A DNA stretch of 64,000 bases, taken from positions 1-64,000 of the IMG/VR virus record IMGVR_UViG_3300026512_000010; one strand, 5' to 3'. This DNA comes from a virus. The translations under genes and the position numbers were made by a program. Positions 13,880 to 30,226 of the stretch are shown here, one piece after another (the first letter of the stretch is position 1; the number at the start of each line of letters is the position of its first letter). The notes below the pieces were generated by a model. It was not told the origin of the DNA, did not search any database, and worked only from the letters and a program-made list of their open reading frames with translations.

Positions 13880-13892
13880 ATAATTCCTTTAA

Positions 13893-15577: not shown

Positions 15578-16092
15578 TTATTCACCTCTATGCTTTTATA
15601 AATTTCTTCCCAACTTAATCCAAAAAAATTGTTTATAATTGTTGGGTAATAAAATCCATATACTTTTCTTCTATCTTTATTCTTTTCATAAAATTCATCT
15701 ATAATCTCCAATTTATCATCAATTAAAATGTCAACATCCACAAGCCACTTTGAATCAGTCGCTATAAAATGAGCATAAGGAAAAAATCTTTTTATAAACT
15801 TCTTTTTTGAGTCATAGTGCTTCCCAAACACAGATGATATAAAAGCAATTTCATGATTTTCGCTTAATTTTTCAATAAACTCTTTAGCATCTTTGTATGG
15901 CTCAACATCATCATATAAATCTTCCTTTTCCCAGAATTCAAAAGGATTTTCGTGCTCAGAAAGATATTTTTTAACATTATATCCAATACCAGCAGGAAGT
16001 TCTACTTTATGTCCTGTTTCCTGTTCATACCATTCTAACCATTTTTCTAAAGTTGGAGCCACCGTTAAATCTACATCAATTCCTATCCTCAT
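15562..16092 (-). CDS. HAD-superfamily 5'(3')-deoxyribonucleotidase-like phosphatase (dNMPase candidate)
   Basis: MRIGIDVDLTVA (DxDxT/V motif I) at the internal Met. Start trimmed to ATG 16090-16092 to clear the upstream stop. Confidence 0.5.
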   Translation of the reverse strand: MRIGIDVDLTVAPTLEKWLEWYEQETGHKVELPAGIGYNVKKYLSEHENPFEFWEKEDLYDDVEPYKDAKEFIEKLSENHEIAFISSVFGKHYDSKKKFIKRFFPYAHFIATDSKWLVDVDILIDDKLEIIDEFYEKNKDRRKVYGFYYPTIINNFFGLSWEEIYKSIEVNKCVLL

Positions 16093-16102
16093 AATAAAGC
16101 CT

Positions 16103-16660
16103 TTACACGTTAAGCTGACGGTTGTCTTCGTTTCCTTTTTCATCTACTTTCTTATATTTTCCTTCTTTATAACCACCCTCTACTCTTTTATGATTCAATG
16201 CATTTTTCTTGAAATACCCATTCCATATTCTATCCTGATCAACACCTAATTCATAGCACATAGAAAGCATAAGTTCTTGAAAATAATCTGGTATAGATGC
16301 AAGTATAAATTTTGCAAGTGCCAATGTTTCATCAATAATAGAATCATTTATTTCATAATTTTCATCAAATAACTCTACAAGCTCATCTATTGAATTTTGC
16401 ATTAAAAGCAATGATAATGCAAAATGTAAAACATCAATTATTTCAATGACAGCATTTTGTTCATCAAGTTCTGATTTTTTCCACCAAGCCCAATTTGGTT
16501 CAACGCTTTGAAGCAATTCGCCATATTCGCATAAAGCAGCTTTTCTAAATTTCTTTTCTGGTATTTTTTCAGCCCAGTCTTCTCCTGAGTATTTTTTATT
16601 AAGTTCTAACTGTGCTTCAAGCAATTTTCTAAAATCTTGTTTTGAAAGTGTATTCTTCAT
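16103..16660 (-). CDS. All-alpha NTP pyrophosphohydrolase (dimeric dUTPase / T4 gp56 dCTPase-like)
   Basis: ELNKKYSGEDWAEKIPE...LCEYGELL...WWKK...EIIDVLHFALSLL resembles the dimeric dUTPase/MazG-like family. Confidence 0.5.
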   Translation of the reverse strand: MKNTLSKQDFRKLLEAQLELNKKYSGEDWAEKIPEKKFRKAALCEYGELLQSVEPNWAWWKKSELDEQNAVIEIIDVLHFALSLLLMQNSIDELVELFDENYEINDSIIDETLALAKFILASIPDYFQELMLSMCYELGVDQDRIWNGYFKKNALNHKRVEGGYKEGKYKKVDEKGNEDNRQLNV

Positions 16661-16667
16661 TTCTTCT

Positions 16668-16698
16668 TCCTTTTTTTATAATTATAATATGTTTTTAA
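16668..16698 (-). promoter_or_regulatory. Conserved phage promoter cassette (variant)
   Basis: ataattataatatgtttttaataaaagtaaa. Confidence 0.4.
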
Positions 16699-16720
16699 TA
16701 AAAGTAAACTAATTTCTAAA

Positions 16721-16951
16721 TCAATACTTGTATTCTTTATCAAAATATACGAGATTGTAATTTGCATATTTTTTATCTAAATATTCCTTTAAACCTTTAA
16801 TTATATTTTCATTATCTATTATGCAAGAATTAATAATGAACTTATCATCTTTTAATATGCTATAATATACAATCAATCCCCATTTTCCAAAAATCAAAAA
16901 ATTTTTTAATTTATATAAAAATTTCTTAATTTTCAACATTAGTTTTTTCAT
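16721..16951 (-). CDS. Hypothetical protein
   Basis: ORF. Confidence 0.35.
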   Translation of the reverse strand: MKKLMLKIKKFLYKLKNFLIFGKWGLIVYYSILKDDKFIINSCIIDNENIIKGLKEYLDKKYANYNLVYFDKEYKY

Positions 16952-17174
16952 TCCAAAAATCTCCTTTGAGATGATAATTTAAATCTACACCCATTTCTTT
17001 CATTTTGTATCTTATATCTCCTAATTTTTCAATAACATCCTTTCTTGACTCTTTTACATAATTTTCAAGAAGAATGTCCTTATTCATTTCAATTTGCTCT
17101 GCATATTTCATTATATCGGCAAGTTCTAAATAAAGCTCCCCAAGTTTCCTATAATATTCATAAGGATAATGCAT
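16926..17174 (-). CDS. Hypothetical protein
   Basis: ORF. Confidence 0.35.
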   Translation of the reverse strand: MHYPYEYYRKLGELYLELADIMKYAEQIEMNKDILLENYVKESRKDVIEKLGDIRYKMKEMGVDLNYHLKGDFWNEKTNVEN

Positions 17175-17195
17175 TTTTACCTCCTTAAATAAATT

Positions 17196-18221
17196 TTATA
17201 TAATTTTAGTATATTCATAATTAATTTTCATAAATCCTTCAGTATATAAAGGAAGCTCAAATCTTTTGGCAAAATCAATTAAAACATTTTCTGGAATAAA
17301 TTTTCCATCAATTTTAGCTCTTTCTTTGTTTCTTTTTAAAATTTCATCTAAAGAAGTCATCATAACAATGGCTATTGCATTATGATTTTTAAGTTGAGAT
17401 AGCCATTTCTTTCTTGATTTCCAGCTAACATTTGTCATATCAATTACAAAATCTTTGTCTGAATTTTTAAGTCTATTAAATTTTTGTTGAAGAATTTTAT
17501 CAACTTCTTTTTGATCTTCAAAGGTTAAATTTTTCCAAATTTCAGAATATGTTTCACCATATCCTTTTTCTTTTCCGTATTCCAAAAGAATACCATCTCT
17601 ACTTAGAACTTCCAAATCTTTAAAATTTTCTTTTATATATGTTGATTTCCCAGAATTTGGAAGCCCTATCATAATATAACAATTATTATCTAATTCTGTG
17701 TTGCAAATTTTATTATGTCCATATTTTTCTTTTTCTTTATGAGTAAATCCTTTAAAAGAAATATTACCTTTAGCATCATATTCTGAGAATTCATAAAGCT
17801 TTTCATATAAATCATAATGTCCATTAATGAAATATTTTTTAATTTGTTTATCTGATTTTTGCCAGAATATCCCATGGTAGTTAATCACATAAAAAATTTC
17901 AAACGCATCAGACCAAGAAATAACATTTTCATATACTAAATTCATTAAAAAATCGATAGCCATTAAAGTAGAAATTCCTTCATGACCTCTAAATACAATT
18001 TTTCCATTTTCAAGCTCTTGTCTTGCGAGAGGTTTTCCAATATCATGAAGAAGTGCAGCAATTTGAATATTTTTTGAAGCATTGTTTAATCTTGCTTGAT
18101 TAAACACAAGCATAGTATGAGTCCAAACATCCCCTTCAAGATGATACGTTCCGTTTGGATGAGTAGCAAATTTTAATCCTTTTTCATAATTTTCTTTAAA
18201 AAGTTTAAATATTTTTTCCAT
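17196..18221 (-). CDS. Bifunctional HD-domain phosphohydrolase / polynucleotide 5'-kinase (RNA end-healing enzyme)
   Basis: N-terminal HD motifs (HLEGDVWTHTM, AALLHDIGKP, RGHEGIS); C-terminal P-loop MIGLPNSGKSTYIKE resembles the T4 Pnk kinase GCPGSGKST; sits next to Rnl1. Confidence 0.7.
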   Translation of the reverse strand: MEKIFKLFKENYEKGLKFATHPNGTYHLEGDVWTHTMLVFNQARLNNASKNIQIAALLHDIGKPLARQELENGKIVFRGHEGISTLMAIDFLMNLVYENVISWSDAFEIFYVINYHGIFWQKSDKQIKKYFINGHYDLYEKLYEFSEYDAKGNISFKGFTHKEKEKYGHNKICNTELDNNCYIMIGLPNSGKSTYIKENFKDLEVLSRDGILLEYGKEKGYGETYSEIWKNLTFEDQKEVDKILQQKFNRLKNSDKDFVIDMTNVSWKSRKKWLSQLKNHNAIAIVMMTSLDEILKRNKERAKIDGKFIPENVLIDFAKRFELPLYTEGFMKINYEYTKII

Positions 18222-18247
18222 TCTAACTCCTTTTAATTCACTTATCT

Positions 18248-18322
18248 GAGCCTCTCTAAGGAATAATCTTTTATTTTTAATATATAATTATTAAAATCAC
18301 TTAAAAGCTCTTAGAGAGGCTC
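18248..18322 (-). promoter_or_regulatory. Leader hairpin/operator element A (13-bp perfect inverted repeat GAGCCTCTCTAAG / CTTAGAGAGGCTC around a -10-like box)
   Basis: Arms at 18248-18260 and 18310-18322; the loop contains tatataattatt. Lies between promoter 18339-18387 and the HD-Pnk start. Homologous elements at 46787-46861 and 58970-59056. Confidence 0.5.
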
Positions 18323-18338
18323 TAATAAATAAACTATT

Positions 18339-18387
18339 TATAATATAATTATAATATAATTATAATATAATTTTTTGAAAAAGTAAA
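18339..18387 (-). promoter_or_regulatory. Conserved phage promoter with triple tandem 11-bp -10 repeat (tataatataat x3)
   Basis: Three perfect copies at 18339-18371 followed by tttttgaaaaagtaaa. Confidence 0.5.
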
Positions 18388-18490
18388 TAGTTTAAGAGAT
18401 ATTTTCCAAAAATTCTCTTGTTTTAAAAATTTTCATGCAATTTTAATAATGCTTATTTTGTAGTTTCAATCCCTTTTTATAATTGCTCTT

Positions 18491-18916
18491 CTATGTGTTG
18501 TATTTTAAATCATTTTCTACAAAATCATAAACTTCTTTAATGACTTCTTTAAGATAATTTTCCAATTCTTTTATTGGTTCGTTCTTAAAGAAAAAGATTT
18601 CATTATCAGTTGCACAAGCTCTTTCTATCAATTCTTTAAATTTGCCATCTTCTTTCAAAACCTTAAAAATTAATTCTCTCATTCTGTGGGAATATTTATC
18701 ATTTTTAGTATGTATTCTTGGACCTTTTATTGATATTAAAAATACAGAATCTTTTTGATTTATTTCTTTATCCCAAATATCTATCTCTTTACCAACAATT
18801 TTAAAATGAAATTCTATGTCGTCAAGTTCAAATATAACAGACTGATCAATACTATATTCAAAAGTTAATCTTGTTTCTTTAATTTCTTTTCCTGTTCTTG
18901 GTAAAATAATATTCAT
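18491..18916 (-). CDS. Hypothetical protein
   Basis: ORF. Confidence 0.4.
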   Translation of the reverse strand: MNIILPRTGKEIKETRLTFEYSIDQSVIFELDDIEFHFKIVGKEIDIWDKEINQKDSVFLISIKGPRIHTKNDKYSHRMRELIFKVLKEDGKFKELIERACATDNEIFFFKNEPIKELENYLKEVIKEVYDFVENDLKYNT

Positions 18917-19274
18917 TTCTACTCCTTAATTTTTTTTTATAGATATATCTAACATCCTCCCAATCGGCTCCAAATTCACTATAAGTTTTTACCTTCTTTT
19001 CACATTTCCAATTTTCATCATCTTCAAGTTTTTGACATTTAAAAATTGATTCAAATTCAAATTTGATAGGTGCATATTTTTGTAAAAATTCCTCCTTTCC
19101 TATATGAATTTCATTTTTAAATTTTGTATTATTACAATCAATTTCAAAAATATGAATACAATTATCAATATCGTTAATATTATCTAAAATGTATTTTTTA
19201 ATTTCTTCAAACGTGCTAAATAATTTTAAAGAATTATATCCTTCATAACAGTTTGAATCTGTAAATAAAAACAT
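18879..19274 (-). CDS. Hypothetical protein
   Basis: ORF (likely start shifts to remove the 38-nt overlap). Confidence 0.4.
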   Translation of the reverse strand: MFLFTDSNCYEGYNSLKLFSTFEEIKKYILDNINDIDNCIHIFEIDCNNTKFKNEIHIGKEEFLQKYAPIKFEFESIFKCQKLEDDENWKCEKKVKTYSEFGADWEDVRYIYKKKLRSRNEYYFTKNRKRN

Positions 19275-19283
19275 TTGTTCTCC

Positions 19284-20405
19284 TTATAGATTTTTTAAAA
19301 ATTCTCTTGCTTTTGACAATTTAAAAGTATCTTTTATAATTTTTTCTTTTAATAGTTTCTCTAAATCCTCTTTTTTATTTGCTTTCATTAAAACACTAAA
19401 ATAAGGATGCTCTTTATGTTTTAAAGCAAACTCTTTTCTTTCTGTTTGAAATTTTACTTTTAATAATTCATTCAATTCATTATACATTTTATCAAAATAG
19501 TGAGAAACTTTATTCCTTATTTCCTCAATTTTATTTCTTTTTTCTCCCTGCGGTAATTGTGATATTACATCATCTATTGTTTCATTTATAATATGTTCTA
19601 TTAATTTATTTTCAACCAAATTATCAGGACTAATTAAATGATGAAGTGTAAAATACCATTTAGTTTTCACCTTTCTAAATTGTCTTTCAAAATTTTCGAA
19701 TGGATTCATTACCACCCACCCTTCAATATCTGTAAATGTTTCTTGTCTTTCTCTTAATTCAGTTAAAGTTAAATATTCAACCTGTGTAATTGGTAGATCA
19801 TACACAAATGCTATATTTTTCACTTTATCATATTCTAAATATTCACCTGTAATAATTCTTCTTGCTTGAATTAATTTTAATTCTGTTTTTTCATATGGAA
19901 CAACAATTTGATTAAATGGGGATATTAATTCAAAAAATAAAAGTATTCCTTCTTTATAACAATTTCTAATTGCGTTTTGGTATTTTTCATTTTTATTAAT
20001 TATTTCTTGTGCCAATTTTGCTTGCTCAGAAAAAAATGTTCCTTTTGTTTTAGCAAGGAAGATTTCATTACCTTTTAGGTTTTCAATATAAATGGTTTGA
20101 ATTAAACTCCCATCTAATTTTTCTCTTGCTTCAAGTCTAGCATTTTCCCATTTTTCATCATTCATTGTAAATGGATTTTCATTATCATTAAAGAATTTGT
20201 GTAATCCTAAATAATAATCTTTTGTTTCTAAATTAATTGTTAAACCTCTTAATTCTAATGCAAAAGAATCTTTAGCAAAATCAGAATAAGAAGCCAACCT
20301 ATAATTAAAAATTCTAAATGGTGTTCCATCTACTACTTCATCTTTATAATAGAAAGCATCATTTTCTTTAACTATGTTCATTGCTCTTTCAAATAAATGA
20401 TTCAT
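19284..20405 (-). CDS. rnlA: RNA ligase 1 (T4 Rnl1/RnlA-like)
   Basis: [26 protein letters not shown] and NENPFTMN match T4 Rnl1 ([35 protein letters not shown] identical); KxDG motif [10 protein letters not shown]. Confidence 0.85.
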   Translation of the reverse strand: [373 protein letters not shown]

Positions 20406-20407
20406 TT

Positions 20408-20571
20408 TAAGCTCCTTGACACAATATATGTGTGCATATTAAAATTTCTATAAAAGCACAAAATGCTATTACACTTGATGTAAACCTAATAAATTCATCA
20501 TTATTATCTTTTAAAATTAATAATTGTAATATAAAAGTTAATATCCAAATTATTAAAAGAAATGTTGTCAT
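20408..20571 (-). CDS. Small (54 aa) membrane protein ORF not in the ORF track
   Basis: ATG at 20569-20571 downstream of a promoter-like cassette; hydrophobic MTTFLLIIWILTFILQLLIL...; its stop lies just before the rnlA RBS. Confidence 0.3.
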
Positions 20572-20592
20572 TTTAACTCCTTAACTTTTTTC

Positions 20593-20615
20593 TTATATAA
20601 TTATAACATAAAACA
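20593..20615 (-). promoter_or_regulatory. Promoter-like cassette (degenerate -35)
   Basis: cttatataattataacataaaac with the conserved downstream ctccttaac RBS context. Confidence 0.3.
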
Positions 20616-20617
20616 GG

Positions 20618-21163
20618 TTATTTATCAAGAGACTTTGTTAATTTTTCATACAACTCACAATCTTTTTTAAATTTTTCTAAATAATAATTTTCATAAATTT
20701 CAATTAATTTTAAAGACTCATTTCGCTGTTCAGGTGTAAGATCCAACATTTCCAACCTTGTAAAAAATGTATCTAACCAATTATAAAATTGCACACGCTG
20801 TTCTATATCTTCAAATGTTAAATTTTCATTTTTAATACAATATTCACCTGTTTTAGTTTTAATTTCATTTAAAAGATCAGTAATAATAAACCAAAAGAAA
20901 GAAATATTTATTCTTAAATCCTTAATTTCATCATAAAGCTCTTGAAAGATTCTACTGAATATCGTTTTAAATTGTTTTCTTTTTACATATTCTTTTGTCA
21001 ATTCTTGTATAAATTGTTTATATTCATTTGAATTTTTTAAATCAAAATAATCAGAAATATTTTTTAATTGAAAAACTTTCCCATTTAGAAGAATTTGTCC
21101 AATAGATGATTCATATTTAGTATTATCTACGGTGTTACTTATTTTTAATACTTCAAATTTCAT
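20618..21163 (-). CDS. Hypothetical protein
   Basis: ORF after promoter 21185-21220. Confidence 0.4.
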   Translation of the reverse strand: MKFEVLKISNTVDNTKYESSIGQILLNGKVFQLKNISDYFDLKNSNEYKQFIQELTKEYVKRKQFKTIFSRIFQELYDEIKDLRINISFFWFIITDLLNEIKTKTGEYCIKNENLTFEDIEQRVQFYNWLDTFFTRLEMLDLTPEQRNESLKLIEIYENYYLEKFKKDCELYEKLTKSLDK

Positions 21164-21184
21164 TGTAGCTCCTTAAATTTTCTT

Positions 21185-21220
21185 TTATATAATTATAATA
21201 TATTTTTAAGAAAAGTAAAG
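21185..21220 (-). promoter_or_regulatory. Conserved phage promoter cassette
   Basis: ttatataattataatatatttttaagaaaagtaaag. Confidence 0.5.
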
Positions 21221-21335
21221 AGCTTTCAAATAATTTTTTGAAAAAATTAAAGAATTTTTATATTATAAATATTTAGATATAATTTTATTAATACGTTTTT
21301 TATAAAAATTTTTATTACGTTTTTCCTATATGTTT

Positions 21336-21881
21336 TTAATAAAATTTATTCCTAAATTCTTCTAATTCTCTTACAAATTTTTTATCTGAGTTTATTTTTT
21401 GATAAATTACCGCATCTTTCCATTCATCATTGATTTGAATTTGGCAAAAGTCTAAAACAAAATATTCATTATTTTTATAATAGTGTTTGTAAATTTTTCC
21501 AATTTCAACATTTTTAAGAATAGGAAAAATAGTGTAATATTCTACATCTATTAAAATGGAATCACAATCTGTGTTCTTTTTATTAATAATTTTAATATCT
21601 AATACTTCTTGTTTTTTTAATTCAATAAATTTTTTTAAAAAATTTTTTACCTGAATATCAGGTGACTTTGTTGTAATTTTCAGTTGATAGAATTCTCTTA
21701 AATCATCATTTTTTGATAAAATATTAACAATATAATTTTTAAAAGTTCCATAGGTAACATTTAATAAAGGTTTTAATTCTTCCCAATCTTCAGATAAAGG
21801 TAATTCTGTTTCATCTTCTATAACCTCTAATAAAGCCTCTATTTCTTCTTGTGTTAAAATTTCTGGCATTACATTCTCCAT
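21336..21881 (-). CDS. Hypothetical acidic protein
   Basis: ORF. Confidence 0.4.
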   Translation of the reverse strand: MENVMPEILTQEEIEALLEVIEDETELPLSEDWEELKPLLNVTYGTFKNYIVNILSKNDDLREFYQLKITTKSPDIQVKNFLKKFIELKKQEVLDIKIINKKNTDCDSILIDVEYYTIFPILKNVEIGKIYKHYYKNNEYFVLDFCQIQINDEWKDAVIYQKINSDKKFVRELEEFRNKFY

Positions 21882-21952
21882 TTTATTTTATTATATGATA
21901 TAAAATCATTTTTCCATTTTTATCTTTAATTTTTGTCATTTAATATTTTTAG

Positions 21953-21984
21953 ATAATTATAATATATTTTTTAAGAAAGTAAAT
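21953..21984 (-). promoter_or_regulatory. Conserved phage promoter cassette
   Basis: ataattataatatattttttaagaaagtaaa. Confidence 0.45.
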
Positions 21985-22003
21985 AAAATAATTTTTATAG
22001 AAA

Positions 22004-22489
22004 TTAAAGAATTTTTATATTGCAGGTATTTTTAGCTACAATTCCATTAATATAGTTTATCATACAGAAATTTTTACTCCATTCAAAATGAGCACTTAAA
22101 TCTAAATCATCAATACAAACTATTTCATTATCATTTTCTAAAAGAATTTCCATAGCTAAAATCCTATCATTAAAGGGATCTTTACCTATAATGTTCATTT
22201 GTTGGATTACATCAAACCATTCTTTCATTAATCTATCATATGTATCTTTTTTAAGTGTTAAATCATCATTTATAATACAGCTCCAGCTACTTATAATAAA
22301 AACTTTATATCCATTTTCAGCACAAAATTTATCTATTTTGTTGCAATTTTCTACTAATTTTTTAAAAATTTCTCCCGGAGAGTTATTCGCCCATTTTCCA
22401 TCCACTTTCTTAGCATATTCTATAATACAATCATCAAAATCAAGACAGATAAGCTTTTCATTTTTTATGTTTTGAATTTCTTTTACCAT
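22004..22489 (-). CDS. Hypothetical protein, possible HAD-like (DFDDC)
   Basis: ICLDFDDCII near the N-terminus weakly resembles HAD motif I. Confidence 0.3.
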   Translation of the reverse strand: MVKEIQNIKNEKLICLDFDDCIIEYAKKVDGKWANNSPGEIFKKLVENCNKIDKFCAENGYKVFIISSWSCIINDDLTLKKDTYDRLMKEWFDVIQQMNIIGKDPFNDRILAMEILLENDNEIVCIDDLDLSAHFEWSKNFCMINYINGIVAKNTCNIKIL

Positions 22490-22518
22490 TACAAGCCTTT
22501 ATAAATTTTTTAATTATC

Positions 22519-23274
22519 TCATGTTTTTCTTTTTGTTATTTTATTCCATCTACAATTACTGCCTATTTCACCATTACTAAAAAGATATATAACATTCAGA
22601 TTTGGATTTGTTTTATTATAATCCCAAAACCAAATATAAGGAAATTTTTTAAGTGCCAAAGCATTATTTTTTAATGTTTCAACATACATAGGATATTTAT
22701 TTTCTACTTCATAAAATTCTATGCTTTCATCTATTAGAATAAAATATTGCAAAAATTTATAAAACCATTTTTTATTTTGTGTTTCATAAACTTCTGGGCG
22801 TATAGTTACTTCAAAATCAAACAATTCTGGTAATTCGTTTTTCCATTTATCAATAACCCAAAAATTATTTGACGTCATCACAAATGACAACCTTACTTTG
22901 TTTTTATAATTATATAATTTATCAATAGTTTCTTTATCTATATTTTCATCAATACTAAAAACAAATTTATCATATCCACTTTTAAAAGCTTTTTCTAATA
23001 CTTTTATATTTCTTGTATGCAATGTGATTTTAATATTTGGATTAAATTGTTTTGCGAGTTTTGATATTTCCCAAGTTTCTTTTATAAATGAAGGATCTGA
23101 AGTATCACCACTTATTGAAAGTAAATTTGTCATATCTGCAAAACATTCAATAAAAGCTTTCCATTTTGTTGAAAAATGTGGGTTTTTATTTTCTCTAATT
23201 TTATTCCCAACACAAAAATCACATTTAAAAGGACAATCCCCACCCGCAAGTATTGAAATATAATCAAATTTCAT
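22519..23274 (-). CDS. Radical SAM protein (Cx3Cx2C)
   Basis: GGDCPFKCDFCVGN cluster 12 residues from the N-terminus; NrdG is encoded separately at 30529..31020. Confidence 0.65.
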   Translation of the reverse strand: MKFDYISILAGGDCPFKCDFCVGNKIRENKNPHFSTKWKAFIECFADMTNLLSISGDTSDPSFIKETWEISKLAKQFNPNIKITLHTRNIKVLEKAFKSGYDKFVFSIDENIDKETIDKLYNYKNKVRLSFVMTSNNFWVIDKWKNELPELFDFEVTIRPEVYETQNKKWFYKFLQYFILIDESIEFYEVENKYPMYVETLKNNALALKKFPYIWFWDYNKTNPNLNVIYLFSNGEIGSNCRWNKITKRKT

Positions 23275-23294
23275 TTTAACTCCTTAACTTTTCT

Positions 23295-23329
23295 TTTATA
23301 ATTTTATAATAATTTTTGAAAAAAGTAAA
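23295..23329 (-). promoter_or_regulatory. Conserved phage promoter cassette
   Basis: tttataattttataataatttttgaaaaaagtaaa. Confidence 0.5.
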
Positions 23330-23346
23330 TTATAAAAGCTTTAATT

Positions 23347-23742
23347 TTAATTTCCCTTTAAAGCCTTTATAAATTTTTTAATTATCTCATATTTTTCTTT
23401 TTGTAATTCATTACAAATTAAACAAAAAAGTTTCCGTTGGTTTTTAACAAATTTTTCTTTATTACTGATATTACATTCAATCCAAACATATTCATAAATA
23501 TCTTCTATATTTTTAGAATTTTCATTTTCTAAGGCGTCATTTAAGTTGTGTTGATTTACCAAATAAAGTCCAATTAATTTGTTCTTTGTTTTTGTTTCAA
23601 AATACTTTTCTAAATAAAATTTATCAACTTTATATCCTGTTTCTTCAAAAAATTCTCTGATAGCTGTTTGTTCTTTTATTTCATTAATCTCTTGTTTGCC
23701 TTTAAAAAAATAAGCACTTTCCTTCTTTATTTTTATAAACAT
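23347..23742 (-). CDS. Nudix hydrolase, C-terminal portion (box at residues 14-36; N-terminal strands missing)
   Basis: Perfect Nudix box GKQEINEIKEQTAIREFFEETGY (G-x5-E-x7-REUxEExGU); stops immediately upstream of the ATG. Confidence 0.6.
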   Translation of the reverse strand: MFIKIKKESAYFFKGKQEINEIKEQTAIREFFEETGYKVDKFYLEKYFETKTKNKLIGLYLVNQHNLNDALENENSKNIEDIYEYVWIECNISNKEKFVKNQRKLFCLICNELQKEKYEIIKKFIKALKGN

Positions 23743-23793
23743 ATATTAAGATTTTATTTTTATAAAATTTATAAGGAACTATACCACACGCTT

Positions 23794-24099
23794 TTACCAT
23801 CTTGGTTTCATTCCTTTAAAGAAATTATCATTATCATATTCTAACATAATAATTGGATTATCATCTAATATCACTGTGTCATAGATCTCATTAATTCTTG
23901 CTCTTGTTTCTTTTGTATTTTGCACTATCAAGCAAGTCCTTGCATTTTCTTGAAGTTTAAATCCCAAAATTATTTCTAACGCTTTTTTATCTATTTCATA
24001 TGCTTCTATTCTATAATCATTAAAATTATACAAATGATATTTAGGAGGATAATCATCAGTATTTATTTCAACAACATTGAAAGTTCTTGATATTTTCAT
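23794..24099 (-). CDS. Possible N-terminal portion of the split Nudix gene
   Basis: Ends ...YDNDNFFKGMKPRW*, repeating the FFKG that precedes the Nudix box in the next ORF. Confidence 0.35.
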   Translation of the reverse strand: MKISRTFNVVEINTDDYPPKYHLYNFNDYRIEAYEIDKKALEIILGFKLQENARTCLIVQNTKETRARINEIYDTVILDDNPIIMLEYDNDNFFKGMKPRW

Positions 24100-24101
24100 T
24101 T

Positions 24102-24863
24102 TTAACTCCTATATTTAGATACAATTAAATCATATGTTACATAATCTTTTAGTGGCATAATAATATTTCTACTCCTAATGACTTCTCTCATATCCTCACC
24201 AACATAAATAGGAACTTGTTCTTTTTTAATATAAACACCAAATTTAAAAAAGTCTGAAATATCATTCCAATCTTTATTATATTTTTCTTTCACGTATTCG
24301 ATTTGCTCATTTGCTGTTTTAAACATAAGTTCTTTATGAGAAGCATATGCTCTTGCAAACATACTTTTACTATTTCTAATAGCATCTCTTTTTCTTTCTG
24401 CAATTACATCCACTAATTTTTCATCAGGAACAGAAAAAACTCGTGCATCAAACCAAGCACCATCAATTGGCTTCATAAAACTTTGACCAAATTGTAATGT
24501 AGCTAAACTTGCACTCAAAGAAGCAAGTTTCTGAACCCTTCCATTATAAGGGTGAGTATATCCTTTTTTATCTGGCTGAGCTGGAATTATAATTGTGATT
24601 TCATCACTTTGTGTATAACCAAACGTTGCTTGAAATTCATCGAAAATTTTTTCCATCGCTTTTACCATAGCAAATGAAAAATCATGATCGAAAGGTTTTT
24701 TGCAATATTTTTTCGACAATTTACTAAATTTGTGGCCATCAACTCTGATTACAATATGTTGATCTTTTGGAATATTGATTTCATATTGCTTTTCATATTG
24801 TTTAATTTTGTAAAGATGTTCTTTGTTCATGATTTGACCTTTTTCTATTTTGCATAAACACAA
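24102..24863 (-). CDS. Thg1-like protein (tRNA-His guanylyltransferase family, 3'-5' nucleotide polymerase)
   Basis: IVIRVDGHKFSKL, KKPFDHDF and FGYTQSDEITIIIP match the Thg1 signatures VVVRLDGRNFHRF, KPND and YGQSDEYSFVF. Confidence 0.75.
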   Translation of the reverse strand: MCLCKIEKGQIMNKEHLYKIKQYEKQYEINIPKDQHIVIRVDGHKFSKLSKKYCKKPFDHDFSFAMVKAMEKIFDEFQATFGYTQSDEITIIIPAQPDKKGYTHPYNGRVQKLASLSASLATLQFGQSFMKPIDGAWFDARVFSVPDEKLVDVIAERKRDAIRNSKSMFARAYASHKELMFKTANEQIEYVKEKYNKDWNDISDFFKFGVYIKKEQVPIYVGEDMREVIRSRNIIMPLKDYVTYDLIVSKYRS

Positions 24864-25165
24864 AATTCTTTAGATTCAACTATATCTTCAAGTTTAGAAA
24901 TAAAATCTAAATATTTTTCTGTTTCTATTTCTTCTATACTAATATGTTCCATTTCTTTTATACAAATTTCTGCGGAAGCAACAGTTGATATAAGCTCCTC
25001 ACCATTAATTATAATATTGAAATAAATTGTGTCTTTTTCTTTAAAAACACTTTCAATATATCCCATATTTTTATCATATTTGAAAATTAAATTTTTATAG
25101 ATATTTTCTAATTCTTTAAAACTAAAATCTTTAAAAGTTTTCATATTAACTCCTTTAACTTTCAT
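24845..25165 (-). CDS. Hypothetical protein
   Basis: ORF after promoter 25164-25201. Confidence 0.4.
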   Translation of the reverse strand: MKVKGVNMKTFKDFSFKELENIYKNLIFKYDKNMGYIESVFKEKDTIYFNIIINGEELISTVASAEICIKEMEHISIEEIETEKYLDFISKLEDIVESKEFCVYAK

Positions 25166-25201
25166 ATAAATAATTATATAATAATTTTTGAAAAAAGTAA
25201 A
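25164..25201 (-). promoter_or_regulatory. Conserved phage promoter cassette
   Basis: catataaataattatataataatttttgaaaaaagtaaa. Confidence 0.5.
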
Positions 25202-25270
25202 TGGCTCAAATTAAGTTTTTAAAAAATTTAATTAAAATAATAAATGATGTATAAACGCAGTATAATTTAT

Positions 25271-25294
25271 AGATTAATTTGTAGATTAATTTGT
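25271..25294. repeat. Tandem 12-bp direct repeat (agattaatttgt x2)
   Basis: Perfect copies at 25271-25282 and 25283-25294. Confidence 0.6.
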
Positions 25295-25308
25295 AAGTGA
25301 AGAAAGTT

Positions 25309-25346
25309 GAAGACTAAAAGATGGTTAAAGCACCTTTTAAAGAAAG
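25309..25346. terminator. Hairpin GAAGACT...AAGTCTT followed by T6 (terminator-like, reads as plus-strand intrinsic terminator; also A-run on the other side)
   Basis: gaagactaaaagatggttaaagcaccttttaaagaaagtctttttt. Confidence 0.3.
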
Positions 25347-25350
25347 TCTT

Positions 25351-25441
25351 TTTTAACTCTTATAAGATGGACGAAGACAAGCCAAAATATTTCCAATATA
25401 TAAATAAGGATGCCTTTTAGTCCATCTTATAAGAGTTAAAA
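25351..25441. terminator. Large hairpin: 22-bp perfect inverted repeat with 47-nt loop, downstream of gene 25509..27329
   Basis: ttttaactcttataagatggac (25351-25372) and gtccatcttataagagttaaaa (25420-25441). The loop GAAGAC...AAATAAGGATGCCTTTT is homologous to the loop of the 27659-27747 hairpin. Confidence 0.35.
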
Positions 25442-25508
25442 GAGGCGGAAGCAAAAACTGTAAATTAAATCATTGTATATATTAAGGATGCCTCTTTGCC
25501 TCTGAAAA

Positions 25509-27329: not shown

Positions 27330-27339
27330 TTTAACTCCT

Positions 27340-27579
27340 TTAAATTAATTCAATCAATTCGTCAATTACACCTAATATACCATCACGATCGTCTTCATAA
27401 ACTTCATGAATTTTTCCATCAACATAAATCACATAAACATAAGAAGTTTCAAAATCTTCAGGAATTTCAAGTTCAATTTTACTTTTTTCACAAAATTCAG
27501 CTCTTACATTTTTCCCTTTTTCTATTAATTTTCTTTCAAAATTTTTAATTGTTCCATGAGCATCACCTAACCAACTCAT
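27340..27579 (-). CDS. Hypothetical acidic small protein
   Basis: ORF after promoter 27599-27638. Confidence 0.4.
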   Translation of the reverse strand: MSWLGDAHGTIKNFERKLIEKGKNVRAEFCEKSKIELEIPEDFETSYVYVIYVDGKIHEVYEDDRDGILGVIDELIELI

Positions 27580-27598
27580 TTTAACTCCTTTAACTTTT

Positions 27599-27638: not shown

Positions 27639-27658
27639 TAATTTTTTCATATTTTTAG

Positions 27659-27747: not shown

Positions 27748-27748
27748 A

Positions 27749-27833
27749 TGGCGGAGGGTGCAGGACTCGAACCTGCAAGTCTTTTCAGACCACGGATTAG
27801 CAATCCGCTCCCTTACCATTCGGACAACCCTCC
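27749..27833 (-). tRNA. tRNA-Ser (GCT), CCA encoded, long variable arm
   Basis: Reverse complement GGAGGGTTGTCCGAATGGTAAGGGAGCGGATTGCTAATCCGTGG...GGTTCGAGTCCTGCACCCTCCGCCA; anticodon loop TTGCTAA. Confidence 0.8.
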
Positions 27834-28006
27834 AAATTTAGAACACTATCCCGGGATAGTGTTCTGGGATATTTCACTTAAAATAATGAAGTGGCCAATT
27901 TCATTTATTTTTTAGTTACTATACCTCAGTGTCTATTTTGCTTCGCCAAACGACACCACCAAAAGCTCTTTAAATTTTTCTTAAAAAACTTAGAGAGTTT
28001 TTGTTT

Positions 28007-28093
28007 TGGTGCACAAGGTGGGACTCGAACCCACACGTCCTTGCAGACACTGAATTTTAAGTCCAGAGCGTCTACCAGTTCCGCCACTCGTGC
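28007..28093 (-). tRNA. tRNA-Leu (TAA)
   Basis: GCACGAGTGGCGGAACTGGTAGACGCTCTGGACTTAAAATTCAG...GGTTCGAGTCCCACCTTGTGCACCA; long variable arm. Confidence 0.8.
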
Positions 28094-28155
28094 AATGATC
28101 TACAGATAATCCTATAGAAGATACCTCTTTCTACACAATGGTAGATGAGCAATTT

Positions 28156-28230
28156 TGGCAAGGGATGATGGGATCGAACCACCAACATCGGTTTTGGAGA
28201 CCGACATTTTACCAATTAAACTAATCCCCT
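28156..28230 (-). tRNA. tRNA-Trp (CCA)
   Basis: anticodon loop CTCCAAA; T-arm GGTTCGATCC; 3' CCA. Confidence 0.75.
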
Positions 28231-28232
28231 AT

Positions 28233-28308
28233 GGTGATCAGGGTGGGGATCGAACCCACGACCACATGATTAAAAGTCATGTGCTCTACCGACTGAGCTA
28301 CCTGATCA
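28233..28308 (-). tRNA. tRNA-Lys (TTT)
   Basis: TGATCAGGTAGCTCAGTCGGTAGAGCACATGACTTTTAATCATG...GGGTTCGATCCCCACCCTGATCACCA. Confidence 0.8.
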
Positions 28309-28310
28309 TT

Positions 28311-28384
28311 TGGTTGCGGGGGCAGGACTCGAACCTGCGACCTTCGGGGTATGAGCCCGACAAACTACCACTGTTCCACCCCGC
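28311..28384 (-). tRNA. tRNA-Met (CAT)
   Basis: GCGGGGTGGAACAGTGGTAGTTTGTCGGGCTCATACCCCGAAG...GGTTCGAGTCCTGCCCCCGCAACCA. Confidence 0.75.
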
Positions 28385-28388
28385 ATTT

Positions 28389-28462
28389 TGGTATCCCCAA
28401 CGGGATTCGAACCCGTGTCAACTGATCGAAAATCAGTTATCCTAACCTCTAGACGATGGGGA
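28389..28462 (-). tRNA. tRNA-Glu (TTC)
   Basis: GTCCCCATCGTCTAGAGGTTAGGATAACTGATTTTCGATCAGT...GGGTTCGAATCCCGTTGGGGATACCA. Confidence 0.8.
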
Positions 28463-28463
28463 C

Positions 28464-28541
28464 ATGGTCTGGGTGGCAGGGCTCGAACCTGCGACCTCCT
28501 GGTCCCAAACCAGGCACTCTACCAAACTGAGCTACACCCAG
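28464..28541 (-). tRNA. tRNA-Pro (TGG)
   Basis: CTGGGTGTAGCTCAGTTTGGTAGAGTGCCTGGTTTGGGACCAGG...GGTTCGAGCCCTGCCACCCAGACCA. Confidence 0.8.
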
Positions 28542-28545
28542 ATGA

Positions 28546-28616
28546 TGCCGAGGGTAGGAATCGAACTACGACCATTAGATTTTCAATCTAACACTCTACC
28601 TCTGAGTTACCTCGGC
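28546..28616 (-). tRNA. tRNA-Phe (GAA), 3' CCA not encoded
   Basis: GCCGAGGTAACTCAGAGGTAGAGTGTTAGATTGAAAATCTAAT...AGTTCGATTCCTACCCTCGGCA followed by TCA rather than CCA. Confidence 0.7.
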
Positions 28617-28754
28617 AAGATCCAATTTTAAGGGAAATTGAAGCCCCTAACAAAATTCTTAAAAAGAACTTTATTAGAAGTTTTTATTAAAGGTGAAAAG
28701 TAAATAATATTAGATTAAAAGTCTAGTCATTTAGGAACTTTATTTACCTTTAAT

Positions 28755-28791
28755 ATTTATAATTATATTATAATTTCAATAAAAAGTAAAG
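28755..28791 (-). promoter_or_regulatory. Conserved phage promoter cassette driving tRNA sub-cluster 1 (Phe to Ser)
   Basis: atttataattatattataatttcaataaaaagtaaag. Confidence 0.5.
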
Positions 28792-28813
28792 TTTTTATTT
28801 AAAAATTTATTTT

Positions 28814-28888
28814 TGGCTCCCCCACCTGGATTCGAACCAGGGACATTCGGATTAACAGTCCGACGTTCTGCCACTGAACTATGAGGGA
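28814..28888 (-). tRNA. tRNA-Asn (GTT)
   Basis: TCCCTCATAGTTCAGTGGCAGAACGTCGGACTGTTAATCCGAA...CTGGTTCGAATCCAGGTGGGGGAGCCA. Confidence 0.8.
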
Positions 28889-28889
28889 T

Positions 28890-28964
28890 TGGTAGTCCCG
28901 AGAGGATTTGAACCTCTATTACCCGATTATCAGTCGAGCGTTCTAACCTATTGAACTACGGGAC
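28890..28964 (-). tRNA. tRNA-Ile (GAT)
   Basis: AGTCCCGTAGTTCAATAGGTTAGAACGCTCGACTGATAATCGGG...GGTTCAAATCCTCTCGGGACTACCA. Confidence 0.75.
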
Positions 28965-28965
28965 T

Positions 28966-29043
28966 ATGGAGCCAGGAGAGGGACTCGAACCCTCAACGAC
29001 CTGATTACAAGTCAGACATTCTAGCCAATTGAATTATCCTGGC
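28966..29043 (-). tRNA. tRNA-Thr (TGT)
   Basis: GCCAGGATAATTCAATTGGCTAGAATGTCTGACTTGTAATCAGG...GGGTTCGAGTCCCTCTCCTGGCTCCA. Confidence 0.8.
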
Positions 29044-29044
29044 A

Positions 29045-29121
29045 TGGCGGTGCGAACGGGACTCGAACCCGCAGCCTCTGGTGTGACAAACCAGCGTTCT
29101 AACCATTAGAACTACCGCACC
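29045..29121 (-). tRNA. tRNA-Asp (GTC)
   Basis: GGTGCGGTAGTTCTAATGGTTAGAACGCTGGTTTGTCACACCAG...GGGTTCGAGTCCCGTTCGCACCGCCA. Confidence 0.8.
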
Positions 29122-29143
29122 TTTATAAAATTATAATTATTAA

Positions 29144-29219
29144 TGGCTAGGGAGGTAGGACTCGAACCTACGGCCACCTGAGTCAAAGTCAGGTGTTCTA
29201 CCAACTGAACTACTCCCTA
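29144..29219 (-). tRNA. tRNA-Gln (TTG)
   Basis: TAGGGAGTAGTTCAGTTGGTAGAACACCTGACTTTGACTCAGG...AGGTTCGAGTCCTACCTCCCTAGCCA. Confidence 0.75.
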
Positions 29220-29220
29220 A

Positions 29221-29308
29221 TGGCAGAGGAGGTGGGATTCGAACCCACGGAAGTTTTACCTCCACTGGTTTTCAAGACCAGCACCTTAAACCACTCGGAC
29301 ACTCCTCT
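29221..29308 (-). tRNA. tRNA-Ser (TGA), long variable arm
   Basis: AGAGGAGTGTCCGAGTGGTTTAAGGTGCTGGTCTTGAAAACCAG...GGGTTCGAATCCCACCTCCTCTGCCA. Confidence 0.75.
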
Positions 29309-29316
29309 AAATTAAT

Positions 29317-29401
29317 GGTGGAGGCGGGTGGACTTGAACCACCAGTCCCAACGGGAACGGATTTACAGTCCGCACGGCTACCAATTACCGGTTACACCTC
29401 C
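29317..29401 (-). tRNA. tRNA-Tyr (GTA), long variable arm
   Basis: GGAGGTGTAACCGGTAATTGGTAGCCGTGCGGACTGTAAATCCGT...GGTTCAAGTCCACCCGCCTCCACCA. Confidence 0.8.
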
Positions 29402-29465
29402 ATAAAGGTGAGAGCTAATTTTTAAAAATCCAAACAATTTTTAACTTTAAGGAAGCTCTTTAACC

Positions 29466-29500
29466 TTATAATTATATTATAATTTTTAACAAAAGTAAAG
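29466..29500 (-). promoter_or_regulatory. Conserved phage promoter cassette driving tRNA sub-cluster 2 (Tyr to Asn)
   Basis: ttataattatattataatttttaacaaaagtaaag. Confidence 0.5.
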
Positions 29501-29526
29501 CATTTTATCTAAAATACTTAATAAAA

Positions 29527-29637
29527 TGGGAATGGAGATTTGAACTCCGGTCTCGCCCTCCATATTTTTATTGAGGTTTGGCTTCCTCTGGACTAACCAC
29601 CAATTTTTAAATTCTCCATTTTATTCAGGGTAATAAC
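29527..29637 (-). ncRNA. Aberrant tRNA-like / structured RNA element with its own promoter (T-arm-like GGAGTTCAAATCTCC, ends complementary, ends ...CCCA; no canonical cloverleaf found)
   Basis: Minus strand GGGTTATTACCCTGAATAAAATGGAGAATTTAAAAATTGGTGGTTAGTCCAGAGGAAGCCAAACCTCAATAAAAATATGGAGGGCGAGACCGGAGTTCAAATCTCCATTCCCA. 5' AATGGAGA(A)TTT pairs with 3' AAATCTCCATT. Confidence 0.25.
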
Positions 29638-29684
29638 CCTTATAAAAAATCTCATATTAAAATCTTTTATAAGTTTTATTATCT

Positions 29685-29719
29685 TTATAATTATATTATA
29701 ATTTTTAACAAAAGTAAAG
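29685..29719 (-). promoter_or_regulatory. Conserved phage promoter cassette upstream of the tRNA-like element
   Basis: tttataattatattataatttttaacaaaagtaaag. Confidence 0.5.
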
Positions 29720-29746
29720 TAATTTTTTTAAAAAAATTATAAATAG

Positions 29747-29823
29747 TGGAGCAGGAGACGAGACTCGAACTCGCGACCCTCAGCTTGGAAGGCTGACGCT
29801 CTAGCCAACTGAGCTACTCCTGC
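29747..29823 (-). tRNA. tRNA-Gly (TCC)
   Basis: GCAGGAGTAGCTCAGTTGGCTAGAGCGTCAGCCTTCCAAGCTGA...GAGTTCGAGTCTCGTCTCCTGCTCCA. Confidence 0.8.
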
Positions 29824-29825
29824 AA

Positions 29826-29901
29826 TGGTGGAGGCGACGGGAATCAAACCCGTGACCTTCTGCGTGCAAAACAGATGCTCTATCTACTGAGCTACGCCCC
29901 C
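29826..29901 (-). tRNA. tRNA-Ala (TGC), G3:U70
   Basis: GGGGGCGTAGCTCAGTAGATAGAGCATCTGTTTTGCACGCAGA...GGGTTTGATTCCCGTCGCCTCCACCA. Confidence 0.8.
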
Positions 29902-29978
29902 TGGTATGCCGTCCAGGATTTGAACCTGGAACTACAGGATTAGAAATCCTGTTCTCTATCCAGTTGAGCTAACGGCAT
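29902..29978 (-). tRNA. tRNA-Arg (TCT)
   Basis: ATGCCGTTAGCTCAACTGGATAGAGAACAGGATTTCTAATCCTG...AGGTTCAAATCCTGGACGGCATACCA. Confidence 0.75.
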
Positions 29979-29979
29979 G

Positions 29980-30065
29980 TGGTGCAGGAAGAGAGACTCG
30001 AACTCTCACGTCTTGCGACACCAGATCCTAAGTCTGGCGTGTCTACCAATTCCACCATTCCTGCA
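29980..30065 (-). tRNA. tRNA-Leu (TAG), long variable arm
   Basis: TGCAGGAATGGTGGAATTGGTAGACACGCCAGACTTAGGATCTGG...GAGTTCGAGTCTCTCTTCCTGCACCA. Confidence 0.75.
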
Positions 30066-30143: not shown

Positions 30144-30193
30144 TGGGAAGACCAGAGGGAATCGAACCCTCGCCCACAGGGTCACGACCTGTG
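30144..30193 (-). pseudogene. tRNA-His (GTG) 3' fragment: anticodon arm, short variable loop, T-arm, acceptor 3' strand, C73 and CCA present; 5' acceptor strand and D-arm absent
   Basis: Minus strand ACAGGTCGTGACCCTGT GGGC GAGGGTTCGATTCCCTC TGGTCTT C CCA. Upstream sequence has no complementary acceptor strand; the stop of ORF 30227..30457 lies 34 nt upstream. Confidence 0.45.
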
Positions 30194-30226
30194 TTTCTAA
30201 CATTTAAATTATGGACTCCATAAATA

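Follow-up and report, generated by a model that had tools for sequence, protein, structure and literature searches.

Gene content of the locus

The stretch of DNA analysed in this study, hereafter the window, comprises the 64,000 nucleotides at positions 1 to 64,000 of the IMG/VR virus record IMGVR_UViG_3300026512_000010, and our subject is a region of it that encodes a Thg1-like protein (TLP), a polynucleotide kinase fused to an HD phosphoesterase domain (HD-Pnk), a T4-type RNA ligase 1 (Rnl1) and an array of tRNA genes. The source is a large, T4-like, low-GC phage genome. The window has a GC content of 25%, its minus strand holds every plausible gene, and its T4-like replication genes comprise a family-B DNA polymerase, a class III ribonucleotide reductase with its activase, and an ATP-dependent DNA ligase; a nucleotide search gave no nucleotide-level match to the window among GenBank phages. 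The features on which the argument depends are as follows.

24102..24830, minus strand: Thg1-like protein of the bacterial TLP type, predicted 3'-5' nucleotidyl transferase, 242 amino acids (Pfam Thg1, PHROG 4717)
23347..23800, minus strand: Nudix hydrolase gene, split by a +1 frameshift in a run of seven T residues (T7 run) at 23704-23710 (Pfam NUDIX, E 4e-6, complete Nudix box)
19284..20405, minus strand: T4-type RNA ligase 1 (Rnl1), 373 amino acids, with a KxDG motif, EKLDGS (PHROG 562, 2c5u, TIGR02308)
17196..18221, minus strand: HD-Pnk, predicted N-terminal HD phosphoesterase and C-terminal 5'-OH polynucleotide kinase, 341 amino acids (Pfam HD and AAA_33)
25173..25201, minus strand: phage promoter TTTACT-N17-TATAAT, one of 26 copies of the motif, at the head of the TLP unit
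27749..30064, minus strand: 19 tRNA genes, nearly all with encoded CCA and with clean acceptor stems (ARAGORN, Rfam)
30144..30219, minus strand: tRNA-His(GUG), first gene of the tRNA array (Rfam tRNA model at 30147-30218, 41.6 bits, E 5e-8; missed by ARAGORN)

The predicted Thg1-like protein

Profile searches bear out the Thg1-family call, and the motifs quoted for it, that had been made in a preliminary description of this DNA: the protein matches Pfam PF04446 with an E value of 8.9e-29 and 100.5 bits (cut-off 29.2) over profile positions 3-130 of 130, and PHROG 4717 ('tRNA-His guanylyltransferase') with an E value of 3e-51. Two details of that description had to be changed. The gene starts at the ATG at 24830, which has an AAAGG ribosome-binding site, and not at the TTG at 24863, and the resulting 242-residue product equals the database protein P0001. 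Moreover, relative to transcription, Thg1 is located upstream and not downstream of Rnl1 and HD-Pnk.

The RVDG and SDE motifs of Thg1 hold three metal-binding carboxylates (D29, D76 and E77 of the human enzyme; PMC6471195). The corresponding residues D31, D76 and E77 of the window protein (242-residue numbering) do not vary among 36 aligned homologs and fall opposite these motifs in Candida albicans Thg1 and in the Bacillus thuringiensis TLP (BtTLP), matching the catalytic D29/D76/E77 of solved Thg1 structures, so that the catalytic carboxylates on which the preliminary description had made its proposal depend are all present. R29, S75, K101, R130, R146, D149, N153 and S154 are likewise invariant in the 36 homologs. 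Among solved relatives the best match is BtTLP (4kgk, E 1.3e-25), followed by the archaeal MaTLP (9e-8) and C. albicans Thg1 (7e-5). The eukaryote-specific HINNLYN motif, which reads the anticodon, is absent, and the segment opposite it is RDAIRNSKSM, resembling ASKNSISM of BtTLP. Since BtTLP is the closest solved relative and HINNLYN is missing, the window protein is assigned to the bacterial-type TLPs and, judged by its residues, is predicted to be catalytically intact.

Bacterial-type TLPs repair 5'-truncated tRNAs by Watson-Crick templated addition, independently of a GUG anticodon (PMC3061083, PMC6471195). The window protein can be aligned with BtTLP (PDB 4KGK/4KGM) over residues 19-215, shares its catalytic carboxylates and its lack of HINNLYN, and by analogy would be expected to share its chemistry, namely templated 3'-5' addition to 5'-truncated tRNA (PMC3061083). 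It differs from BtTLP in that it is phage-encoded, is co-transcribed with a Nudix gene and is known from sequence alone.

The palm domain of Thg1 is related to the GGDEF and Cas10 cyclases, and the window TLP might accordingly act on something other than tRNA, extending or capping the 5' ends of other RNAs or making a nucleotide signal. DdiTLP4 has non-tRNA substrates (PMC5041481), and the neighbouring Dcp2-like Nudix protein would fit cap-like chemistry. However, the resemblance to BtTLP is almost full-length and includes the Thg1-specific invariant residues R29, S75, K101, R130 and N153, and the neighbourhood is rich in tRNA and tRNA-repair genes; we consider a function away from tRNA very improbable.

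The predicted HD-Pnk and Rnl1

The open reading frames (ORFs) previously described for HD-Pnk and Rnl1 both hold up, lying on the minus strand and containing the domains given for them (Pfam, PHROG, TIGR02308, 2c5u). HD-Pnk matches Pfam HD over residues 32-91 (E 1.2e-5) and AAA_33 over residues 183-324 (E 5.7e-15), and its full length is matched by PHROG 6931, an unannotated phage family (E 8e-66). NCBIfam relates the HD half to the HD domain found in CCA-adding enzymes, and the kinase half to bacterial Pnkp. The kinase domain is similar in sequence to Clostridium thermocellum Pnkp (CthPnkp), with the Asp of its RD motif aligned to the Asp of the SSD motif of CthPnkp, and in an AlphaFold2 (AF2) model with a predicted local distance difference test score (pLDDT) of 93 the fold of this half is nearest to mammalian PNKP, CthPnk, T4 Pnk and Pnkp1. 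Across 35 full-length homologs the invariant residues are H27, E29, H35, H59-D60, K63, H80, H116 and D149 in the HD half, and the Walker A motif G186-K192 (GLPNSGKST), R208-D209, R270 and R297 in the kinase half. HD-Pnk thus retains the complete His/Asp set for metal binding of an HD domain, together with a P-loop kinase possessing Walker A and the catalytic Asp, and looks catalytically intact by residue conservation.

Rnl1 matches PHROG 562 (E 1.3e-67) and the structure of T4 Rnl1 (2c5u, E 1e-31), and the lysine of its KLDG motif aligns with K99 of T4 Rnl1, where the motif is KEDG. The match to TIGR02308 (E 7e-45) scores 153.7 bits, which is under the equivalog cut-off of 242, and the match to T4_Rnl1_C in Pfam is weak (E 3e-4). 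With a full-length match, the KxDG lysine and a C-terminal domain, the protein belongs to the T4 RnlA/Rnl1 family, and its residues look like those of an active ligase.

The preliminary description had drawn attention to an HD domain fused to a Pnk-type kinase in place of the kinase-HAD arrangement. This architecture is indeed present, but it is not new: an HD-Pnk of Runella slithyformis, whose gene is next to a ligase gene, has been characterised (Munir and Shuman 2017, as cited in PMC6097658). Compared by description, the two proteins share the order of an N-terminal HD 2',3'-phosphoesterase and a C-terminal 5'-OH kinase, and both are associated with an ATP-dependent ligase. They differ in that in the window the ligase, a T4-type Rnl1, is encoded at a distance of about 1 kb and in a separate transcription unit, whereas the Runella ligase is described there as an overlapping ORF. 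Homologs of HD-Pnk that combine HD and AAA_33 number hundreds. A scan of the genome collection with a narrow peptide pattern derived from nine HD-Pnk sequences gave 18 loci, and Runella was not among them.

Compared with Pnkp and Rnl1 of phage T4, the window encodes an orthologous Rnl1 (E 1e-31) and a kinase domain in the PNK clade of T4 Pnk, presumably for the same purpose of undoing the damage done by anticodon nucleases. In contrast, the domain for healing 3' ends is HD rather than HAD, and the window adds a TLP, a Nudix protein and a 20-tRNA array. The Pnkp-Hen1 cassettes of bacteria and phages likewise have clustered healing and sealing enzymes, but neither a Hen1 methyltransferase nor a Pnkp ligase domain was found in the window.

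Transcription units and gene linkage

The motif TTTACT-N16/17-TATAAT occurs 26 times in the window, always on the coding strand, against a chance expectation of 0.26, and its copies fall in intergenic gaps. At least four promoter-defined units, given by the positions of this motif, make up the repair region; copies other than the one at the head of the TLP unit are found at 21956-21983, 21192-21219 and 18359-18387, all on the minus strand.

25173..25201, minus strand: promoter of unit P25201, which contains orf106, TLP, orf101, Nudix, the radical SAM gene and the 161-residue ORF
21956..21983, minus strand: promoter of unit P21983, which contains a single ORF
21192..21219, minus strand: promoter of the Rnl1 unit P21219, which contains orf181, orf54, Rnl1 and two small ORFs
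18359..18387, minus strand: promoter of the HD-Pnk unit P18387, which contains HD-Pnk and downstream genes

Because the motif splits the region into units in this way, HD-Pnk, Rnl1 and TLP have a common promoter class and no common operon. The motif in its fuller form, TTTACTTTT..AAAAA..TATAAT, sets the transcription units of this part of the genome, and a further example is located at 47010-47038 (minus strand). Gaps in the tRNA array hold three copies, of which those at 29471-29499 and 29690-29718 are identical to each other.

The gene neighbourhoods of Thg1 homologs in other phages, designated by L numbers where they come from our own set of loci, are informative in this respect. At L002, where the TLP homolog is 57% identical to that of the window, a standalone AAA_33 kinase and a Nudix gene are just upstream and Rnl1 is 4 kb downstream. 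L088 has Hen1 and an 884-residue Pnkp two genes upstream of Thg1 and Rnl1 downstream. RtcB is 2.8 kb from Thg1 in Bacillus phage Goe8, and a polynucleotide kinase is three genes from Thg1 in Mycobacterium phage Klein. Among 61 non-redundant Thg1 loci, a Pnk-like kinase is found within 10 kb in 14 and a fused HD-Pnk in 5. Since the healing and sealing enzymes near Thg1 vary from phage to phage, the comparative evidence supports a functional link, and HD-Pnk, Rnl1 and TLP would form a module only loosely. The 'module' of the preliminary description thus survives as a loose functional association seen by comparison of loci, but its linkage was overstated, the genes being spread over separate promoter-defined units across 7.6 kb.

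The same data may be read to mean that there is no functional module, and that HD-Pnk, Rnl1 and TLP are independent genes merely co-located in an early/middle region of nucleotide and RNA metabolism. Besides the separate units, nine intervening ORFs are without a known link to RNA repair, and the region grades into a thymidine-hypermodification cluster at one end and, at the other, into tRNAs and ribonucleotide reductase. At many Thg1 loci a repair gene is absent from the surrounding 10 kb, and AAA_33 kinases show no enrichment close to Thg1, being equally frequent at ±2 and at ±8-9 genes (3/150 each). Nevertheless, the healing and sealing enzymes found near Thg1 in unrelated phages differ and are not orthologous, and the same is true in bacteria (PMC2904730), so that shared ancestry of gene order is not an easy explanation, and we regard mere co-location as unlikely.

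The Thg1 homolog of L005/L009 (locus 10001-11236) has 411 residues, and its extra region is absent from the 242-residue window protein. Upstream of this homolog are genes for SmpB, Cpn60 and a PolyA_pol/CCA-type nucleotidyltransferase.

The tRNA array and its tRNA-His

With tRNA-His included, the array contains 20 genes and is situated 3 kb upstream of TLP on the same strand. ARAGORN reported no His, Val or Cys tRNA in the array at 27749-30064, and tRNA-Val and tRNA-Cys genes were not detected in the array with either ARAGORN or Rfam. The additional tRNA gene found by Rfam is a tRNA-His, because its anticodon loop UCGUGAC gives the anticodon GUG. It has an encoded G-1 (30219), the discriminator C73 (30147) and CCA (30146-30144). 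Position 33 of tRNAs is near-universally U; here it is C, and the tRNA is also unusual in its G1-U72 wobble, U4-U69 mismatch and weak D stem. Encoded G-1 and C73 are also present in all four other phage tRNA-His genes located within 10 kb of a Thg1 homolog, three of which (L018, L035 and L065; read by hand) show two U-U mismatches side by side at the centre of the acceptor stem (positions 4-6).

Three explanations based on these tRNAs were considered and set aside. Editing of positions 1-3 at tRNA 5' ends, in the style of amoebozoan mitochondria, is ruled out because the other 19 tRNAs, those detected by ARAGORN, have clean, well-paired acceptor stems (19/19). A phage tRNA-His that lacks an encoded G-1 and hence depends on Thg1 is also ruled out, as G-1 is encoded here and in the four other phage tRNA-His genes near Thg1; therefore, the phage is not strictly in need of Thg1 to make G-1. 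Finally, a TTGACA-N17-TAATAT sequence that ends 5 nt before G-1, and that would make the tRNA-His leaderless, is taken as a chance occurrence, since it lies inside the preceding ORF and has no counterpart upstream of tRNA-His at other loci.

Charging by histidyl-tRNA synthetase (HisRS) requires G-1. The TLP could therefore be dedicated to the maturation or quality control of tRNA-His, restoring G-1 opposite C73 after host RNase P has cut a phage or host pre-tRNA-His at +1. In its favour, C73 is the template that a TLP needs, and the weak acceptor stem, with its G1-U72 wobble and U4-U69 mismatch, might make RNase P cleavage imprecise; the U-U mismatches of three of the four other phage tRNA-His genes, together with the C73 found in all of them, are in the same direction. 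Archaeal and bacterial TLPs and DdiTLP2 do add G-1 opposite C73 (PMC6471195). On the other side, the encoded G-1 in 5/5 phage tRNA-His genes examined means that post-transcriptional addition is not obligatory, the window TLP is without the anticodon-reading HINNLYN, its closest solved relative BtTLP prefers 5'-truncated tRNAs (PMC3061083), and at most Thg1 loci a tRNA-His is lacking within 10 kb. A role confined to tRNA-His is, in our estimation, a serious possibility, albeit clearly a minority one.

The Nudix gene adjacent to TLP

The nearby Nudix gene mentioned in the preliminary description is present at 23347-23800, but a +1 frameshift breaks it in two. The first 32 residues, which are conserved (MVKACGIVPYKF...), have their ATG at 23800, overlapping the stop codon of the preceding ORF (ATGGTAA), and are read in a different frame from the rest, so that the N-terminal ORF (23800-23702) runs to a stop at 23702 and the C-terminal ORF covers 23742-23347. 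When one T of the T7 run is skipped, a protein of 150 residues results that aligns end to end with its orthologs and is 52% identical to the copy at L002. A programmed frameshift was considered for this gene, as a +1 slip might occur at its UUU UAA A; however, the T7 run is not conserved in the orthologs, which makes programmed frameshifting less likely than an indel in the homopolymer or an error of assembly.

By family profile, the Nudix protein is closest to Dcp2 and Ap4A hydrolase (E about 1e-15), followed by ADP-ribose pyrophosphatase (1e-12), RppH (1.7e-8) and MutT (1e-8), and its NCBIfam matches are scattered over MutT, RppH and YtkD. Among the closest TLP relatives, at 37-57% identity, the arrangement of the window, with an orthologous small Nudix gene no more than two genes from Thg1, recurs at L002, L005/L009, L007 and L013; at L010, L012 and L014 this ortholog is within 10 kb of Thg1. 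The other neighbours vary. Over 38 non-redundant loci, NUDIX outnumbers every other Pfam family at ±2 genes of Thg1 (5/150 ORFs), compared with at most one at the control positions of ±8-9 genes. The association of Thg1 with Nudix is limited to a clade and is not statistically strong, and we regard it as suggestive.

Yeast Thg1 is inefficient at removing 5'-pyrophosphate from Watson-Crick paired ends (PMC6471195), and therefore a separate enzyme that trims ppp- or App-ends after templated repair is a reasonable hypothesis. According to this hypothesis, Watson-Crick templated extension by TLP would leave a 5'-triphosphate or App-RNA end, which TLP, if it resembles the yeast enzyme, would be inefficient at clearing of 5'-pyrophosphate, and the Nudix protein would convert this end to a 5'-monophosphate, for example for recognition of pG-1 by HisRS. 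TLP and the adjacent Dcp2/Ap4A-hydrolase-like Nudix protein would then constitute a unit of two enzymes in this phage clade, one to rebuild 5' ends and the other to finish them, which we put forward tentatively and think rather doubtful. If it is true, the Nudix protein would be a previously undescribed partner for 3'-5' polymerases.

A proposed tRNA supply-and-repair toolkit

We consider it somewhat probable that the stretch encodes a tRNA supply-and-repair toolkit, composed of known enzyme families under one class of phage promoter. The observations concern domain identity, catalytic-residue conservation, promoter structure and recurring gene neighbourhoods; the enzymatic activities, their substrates, the role of the Nudix protein and a counter-defence purpose are inferred, as follows. 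A host ribonuclease would cut or trim tRNA. The HD domain of HD-Pnk would remove 2',3'-cyclic or 3'-phosphate ends and its kinase domain would phosphorylate 5'-OH ends, and Rnl1 would seal nicked anticodon loops as in T4. TLP would act on tRNAs that have lost 5'-terminal nucleotides, including tRNA-His without G-1, for which C73 would be the template; it would activate the 5'-phosphate with ATP or GTP and then add nucleotides in the 3'-5' direction, templated by the 3' strand of the acceptor stem. The adjacent Dcp2/Ap4A-hydrolase-like Nudix protein may trim the 5'-triphosphate or 5'-adenylylate on the rebuilt end.

This toolkit is supported by the closeness of TLP to BtTLP, an enzyme that repairs 5'-truncated tRNAs (PMC3061083, PMC6471195), and by the 20-gene tRNA array with its C73 tRNA-His 3 kb upstream, along with the shared promoter motif before each unit. 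The same RNA-repair function has been deduced from published analyses of gene neighbourhoods (PMC2904730, PMC7824862). The functional logic of the preliminary description, which combined end healing, sealing and templated 3'-5' rebuilding, therefore appears right, with gene identities that agree with the domains and catalytic residues found.

Several points weigh against the toolkit. HD-Pnk, Rnl1 and TLP are in separate transcription units, with the nine unrelated or unknown ORFs between them, and the flat distribution of AAA_33 kinases around Thg1 was noted above. The Nudix gene of the window is frameshifted. None of the phage's own tRNAs demands 5' rebuilding, as 19/19 ARAGORN tRNAs are well paired in the acceptor stem and the G-1 of tRNA-His is encoded. 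We know of no host nuclease that truncates tRNA 5' ends. In addition, literature searches gave no assay of any phage TLP, and a 2019 review of Thg1 has neither 'phage' nor 'virus' in its text (PMC6471195).

Relation to known phage Thg1 proteins

Repair of tRNA 5' ends by Thg1 had been put forward in the preliminary description as undocumented in phages, which is wrong, since phage Thg1 was reported in 2010, 2013 and 2021 (PMC2904730, PMC3601020, PMC7824862). Anantharaman et al. (2010) found Thg1 in Pseudomonas phage 201phi2-1 and proposed RNA repair against host defences, and in bacteria they described conserved gene neighbourhoods in which Thg1 is accompanied by polynucleotide kinase, Macro domains and RNA ligase (PMC2904730). 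In 2013 attention was drawn to a Thg1 homolog of Bacillus phage Bc431v3, gp143 (PMC3601020), and Iyer et al. (2021) listed Thg1 among the RNA-repair nucleotidyltransferases of jumbo phages and noted HD-type phosphatases in a few of these phages (PMC7824862). By tblastn, we found TLP homologs in 145 GenBank phage records, including those of Bacillus, Prevotella Lak phages, Mycobacterium, Caulobacter and Erwinia, all below 60% identity and at most about 35%, and a pattern scan revealed at least 588 IMG/VR contigs with Thg1 homologs.

The window TLP has the same family membership and the same proposed role in RNA repair as the catalogued phage Thg1 proteins (201phi2-1, Bc431v3 gp143, PHROG 4717 and the jumbo phages of Iyer et al.). 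Unlike these, it is a member of a separate clade, found in vent-type and other metagenomes, whose proteins are 39-85% identical to each other, and its genome is T4-like, with 25% GC and a thymidine-hypermodification cluster. The locus thus adds to the known, computationally predicted phage toolkits for tRNA repair; the earlier interpretation is right in substance and is not new, and what this locus contributes is only the Thg1-Nudix pairing and the cryptic tRNA-His. It leaves existing predictions unchanged.

Phage 3'-5' polymerases are thus widespread, and we found no characterisation of them in the literature. If phage TLPs rebuild tRNA 5' ends during infection, then either hosts damage those ends by undiscovered means or the maturation of phage tRNA-His needs help. 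The locus is a well-defined example for a test, with a TLP under a defined promoter, a linked Nudix gene, HD-Pnk, Rnl1 and a cognate tRNA-His with C73.

Other genes and features of the window

The remaining genes of the TLP unit to which a description can be given are the following.

22519..23274, minus strand: small radical SAM protein, 251 amino acids, CxxxCxxC at C14/C18/C21 (weak Pfam Radical_SAM match)
22004..22489, minus strand: ORF of 161 amino acids with a DxD motif (LDFDDC), last gene of the TLP unit (motif only)

The radical SAM protein belongs to a family of 24 members, and its AF2 model (pLDDT 89) has a generic fold like that of MoaA, SkfB and QueE. It was considered as a partner of TLP and ruled out by this generic fold and by homologs in varied, unrelated contexts such as NAD salvage or SIR2; it is probably outside the repair function. 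The 161-residue ORF had no profile match in Pfam, PHROGs, NCBIfam or PDB, so that its possible identity as a HAD-like phosphatase is based on the motif; a homolog is encoded four genes from Thg1 at L002. The other small ORFs of the interval gave no matches.

Between the tRNA array and TLP lies a 606-residue ORF (25509-27329, minus strand) with no match in Pfam, PHROG or NCBIfam, and homologs of about 610 residues are located upstream of Thg1 at L013 and L014. The 344-bp gap between this ORF and the promoter of the TLP unit has a folding z-score of -5.5 and contains, at 25342-25450, a near-perfect long hairpin with a stem of about 21 bp, which could be a terminator or a processing site. An Rfam scan of 16500-27800 returned nothing real, only this hairpin being weakly scored as plant miRNA precursors.

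The thymidine-hypermodification cluster occupies 7428-16660 (minus strand). It contains genes for dCMP deaminase, two 5-hmdU DNA kinases (HMUD2; HMUDK_hel E 8e-65), a dNMP kinase, a thymidylate-synthase-like protein, a further HMUD2-domain protein, an amino-acid:DNA transferase / aGPT-pyrophosphorylase, a glutamine amidotransferase, NT5C and dUTPase_2, and from this gene content the phage DNA probably carries hypermodified thymine.

Full-length homologs of HD-Pnk, at 26-31% identity, are present on contigs binned as Sulfurimonas metagenome-assembled genomes (L091, L093 and L094), and L002, which carries a close Thg1 relative, comes from a hydrothermal-vent metagenome; these give a weak hint that the host is a member of the Campylobacterota. 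A DHH phosphoesterase had also been described at 39048-39977, for which a match to PHROG 4771 (E 1.7e-9) is the sole basis, and Pfam shows nothing there. Finally, the interval 54186-57906 (minus strand) encodes a 512-residue protein with an N-terminal RNA-ligase-like domain (EEKLDG; PF09414, E 1e-5) and a C-terminal NMNAT/cytidylyltransferase-like domain (PHROG 27149, function unknown), beside a 316-residue ORF without matches and a 409-residue ORF that matches only PHROG 19290 (function unknown), and is possibly a second RNA-end-processing cluster.

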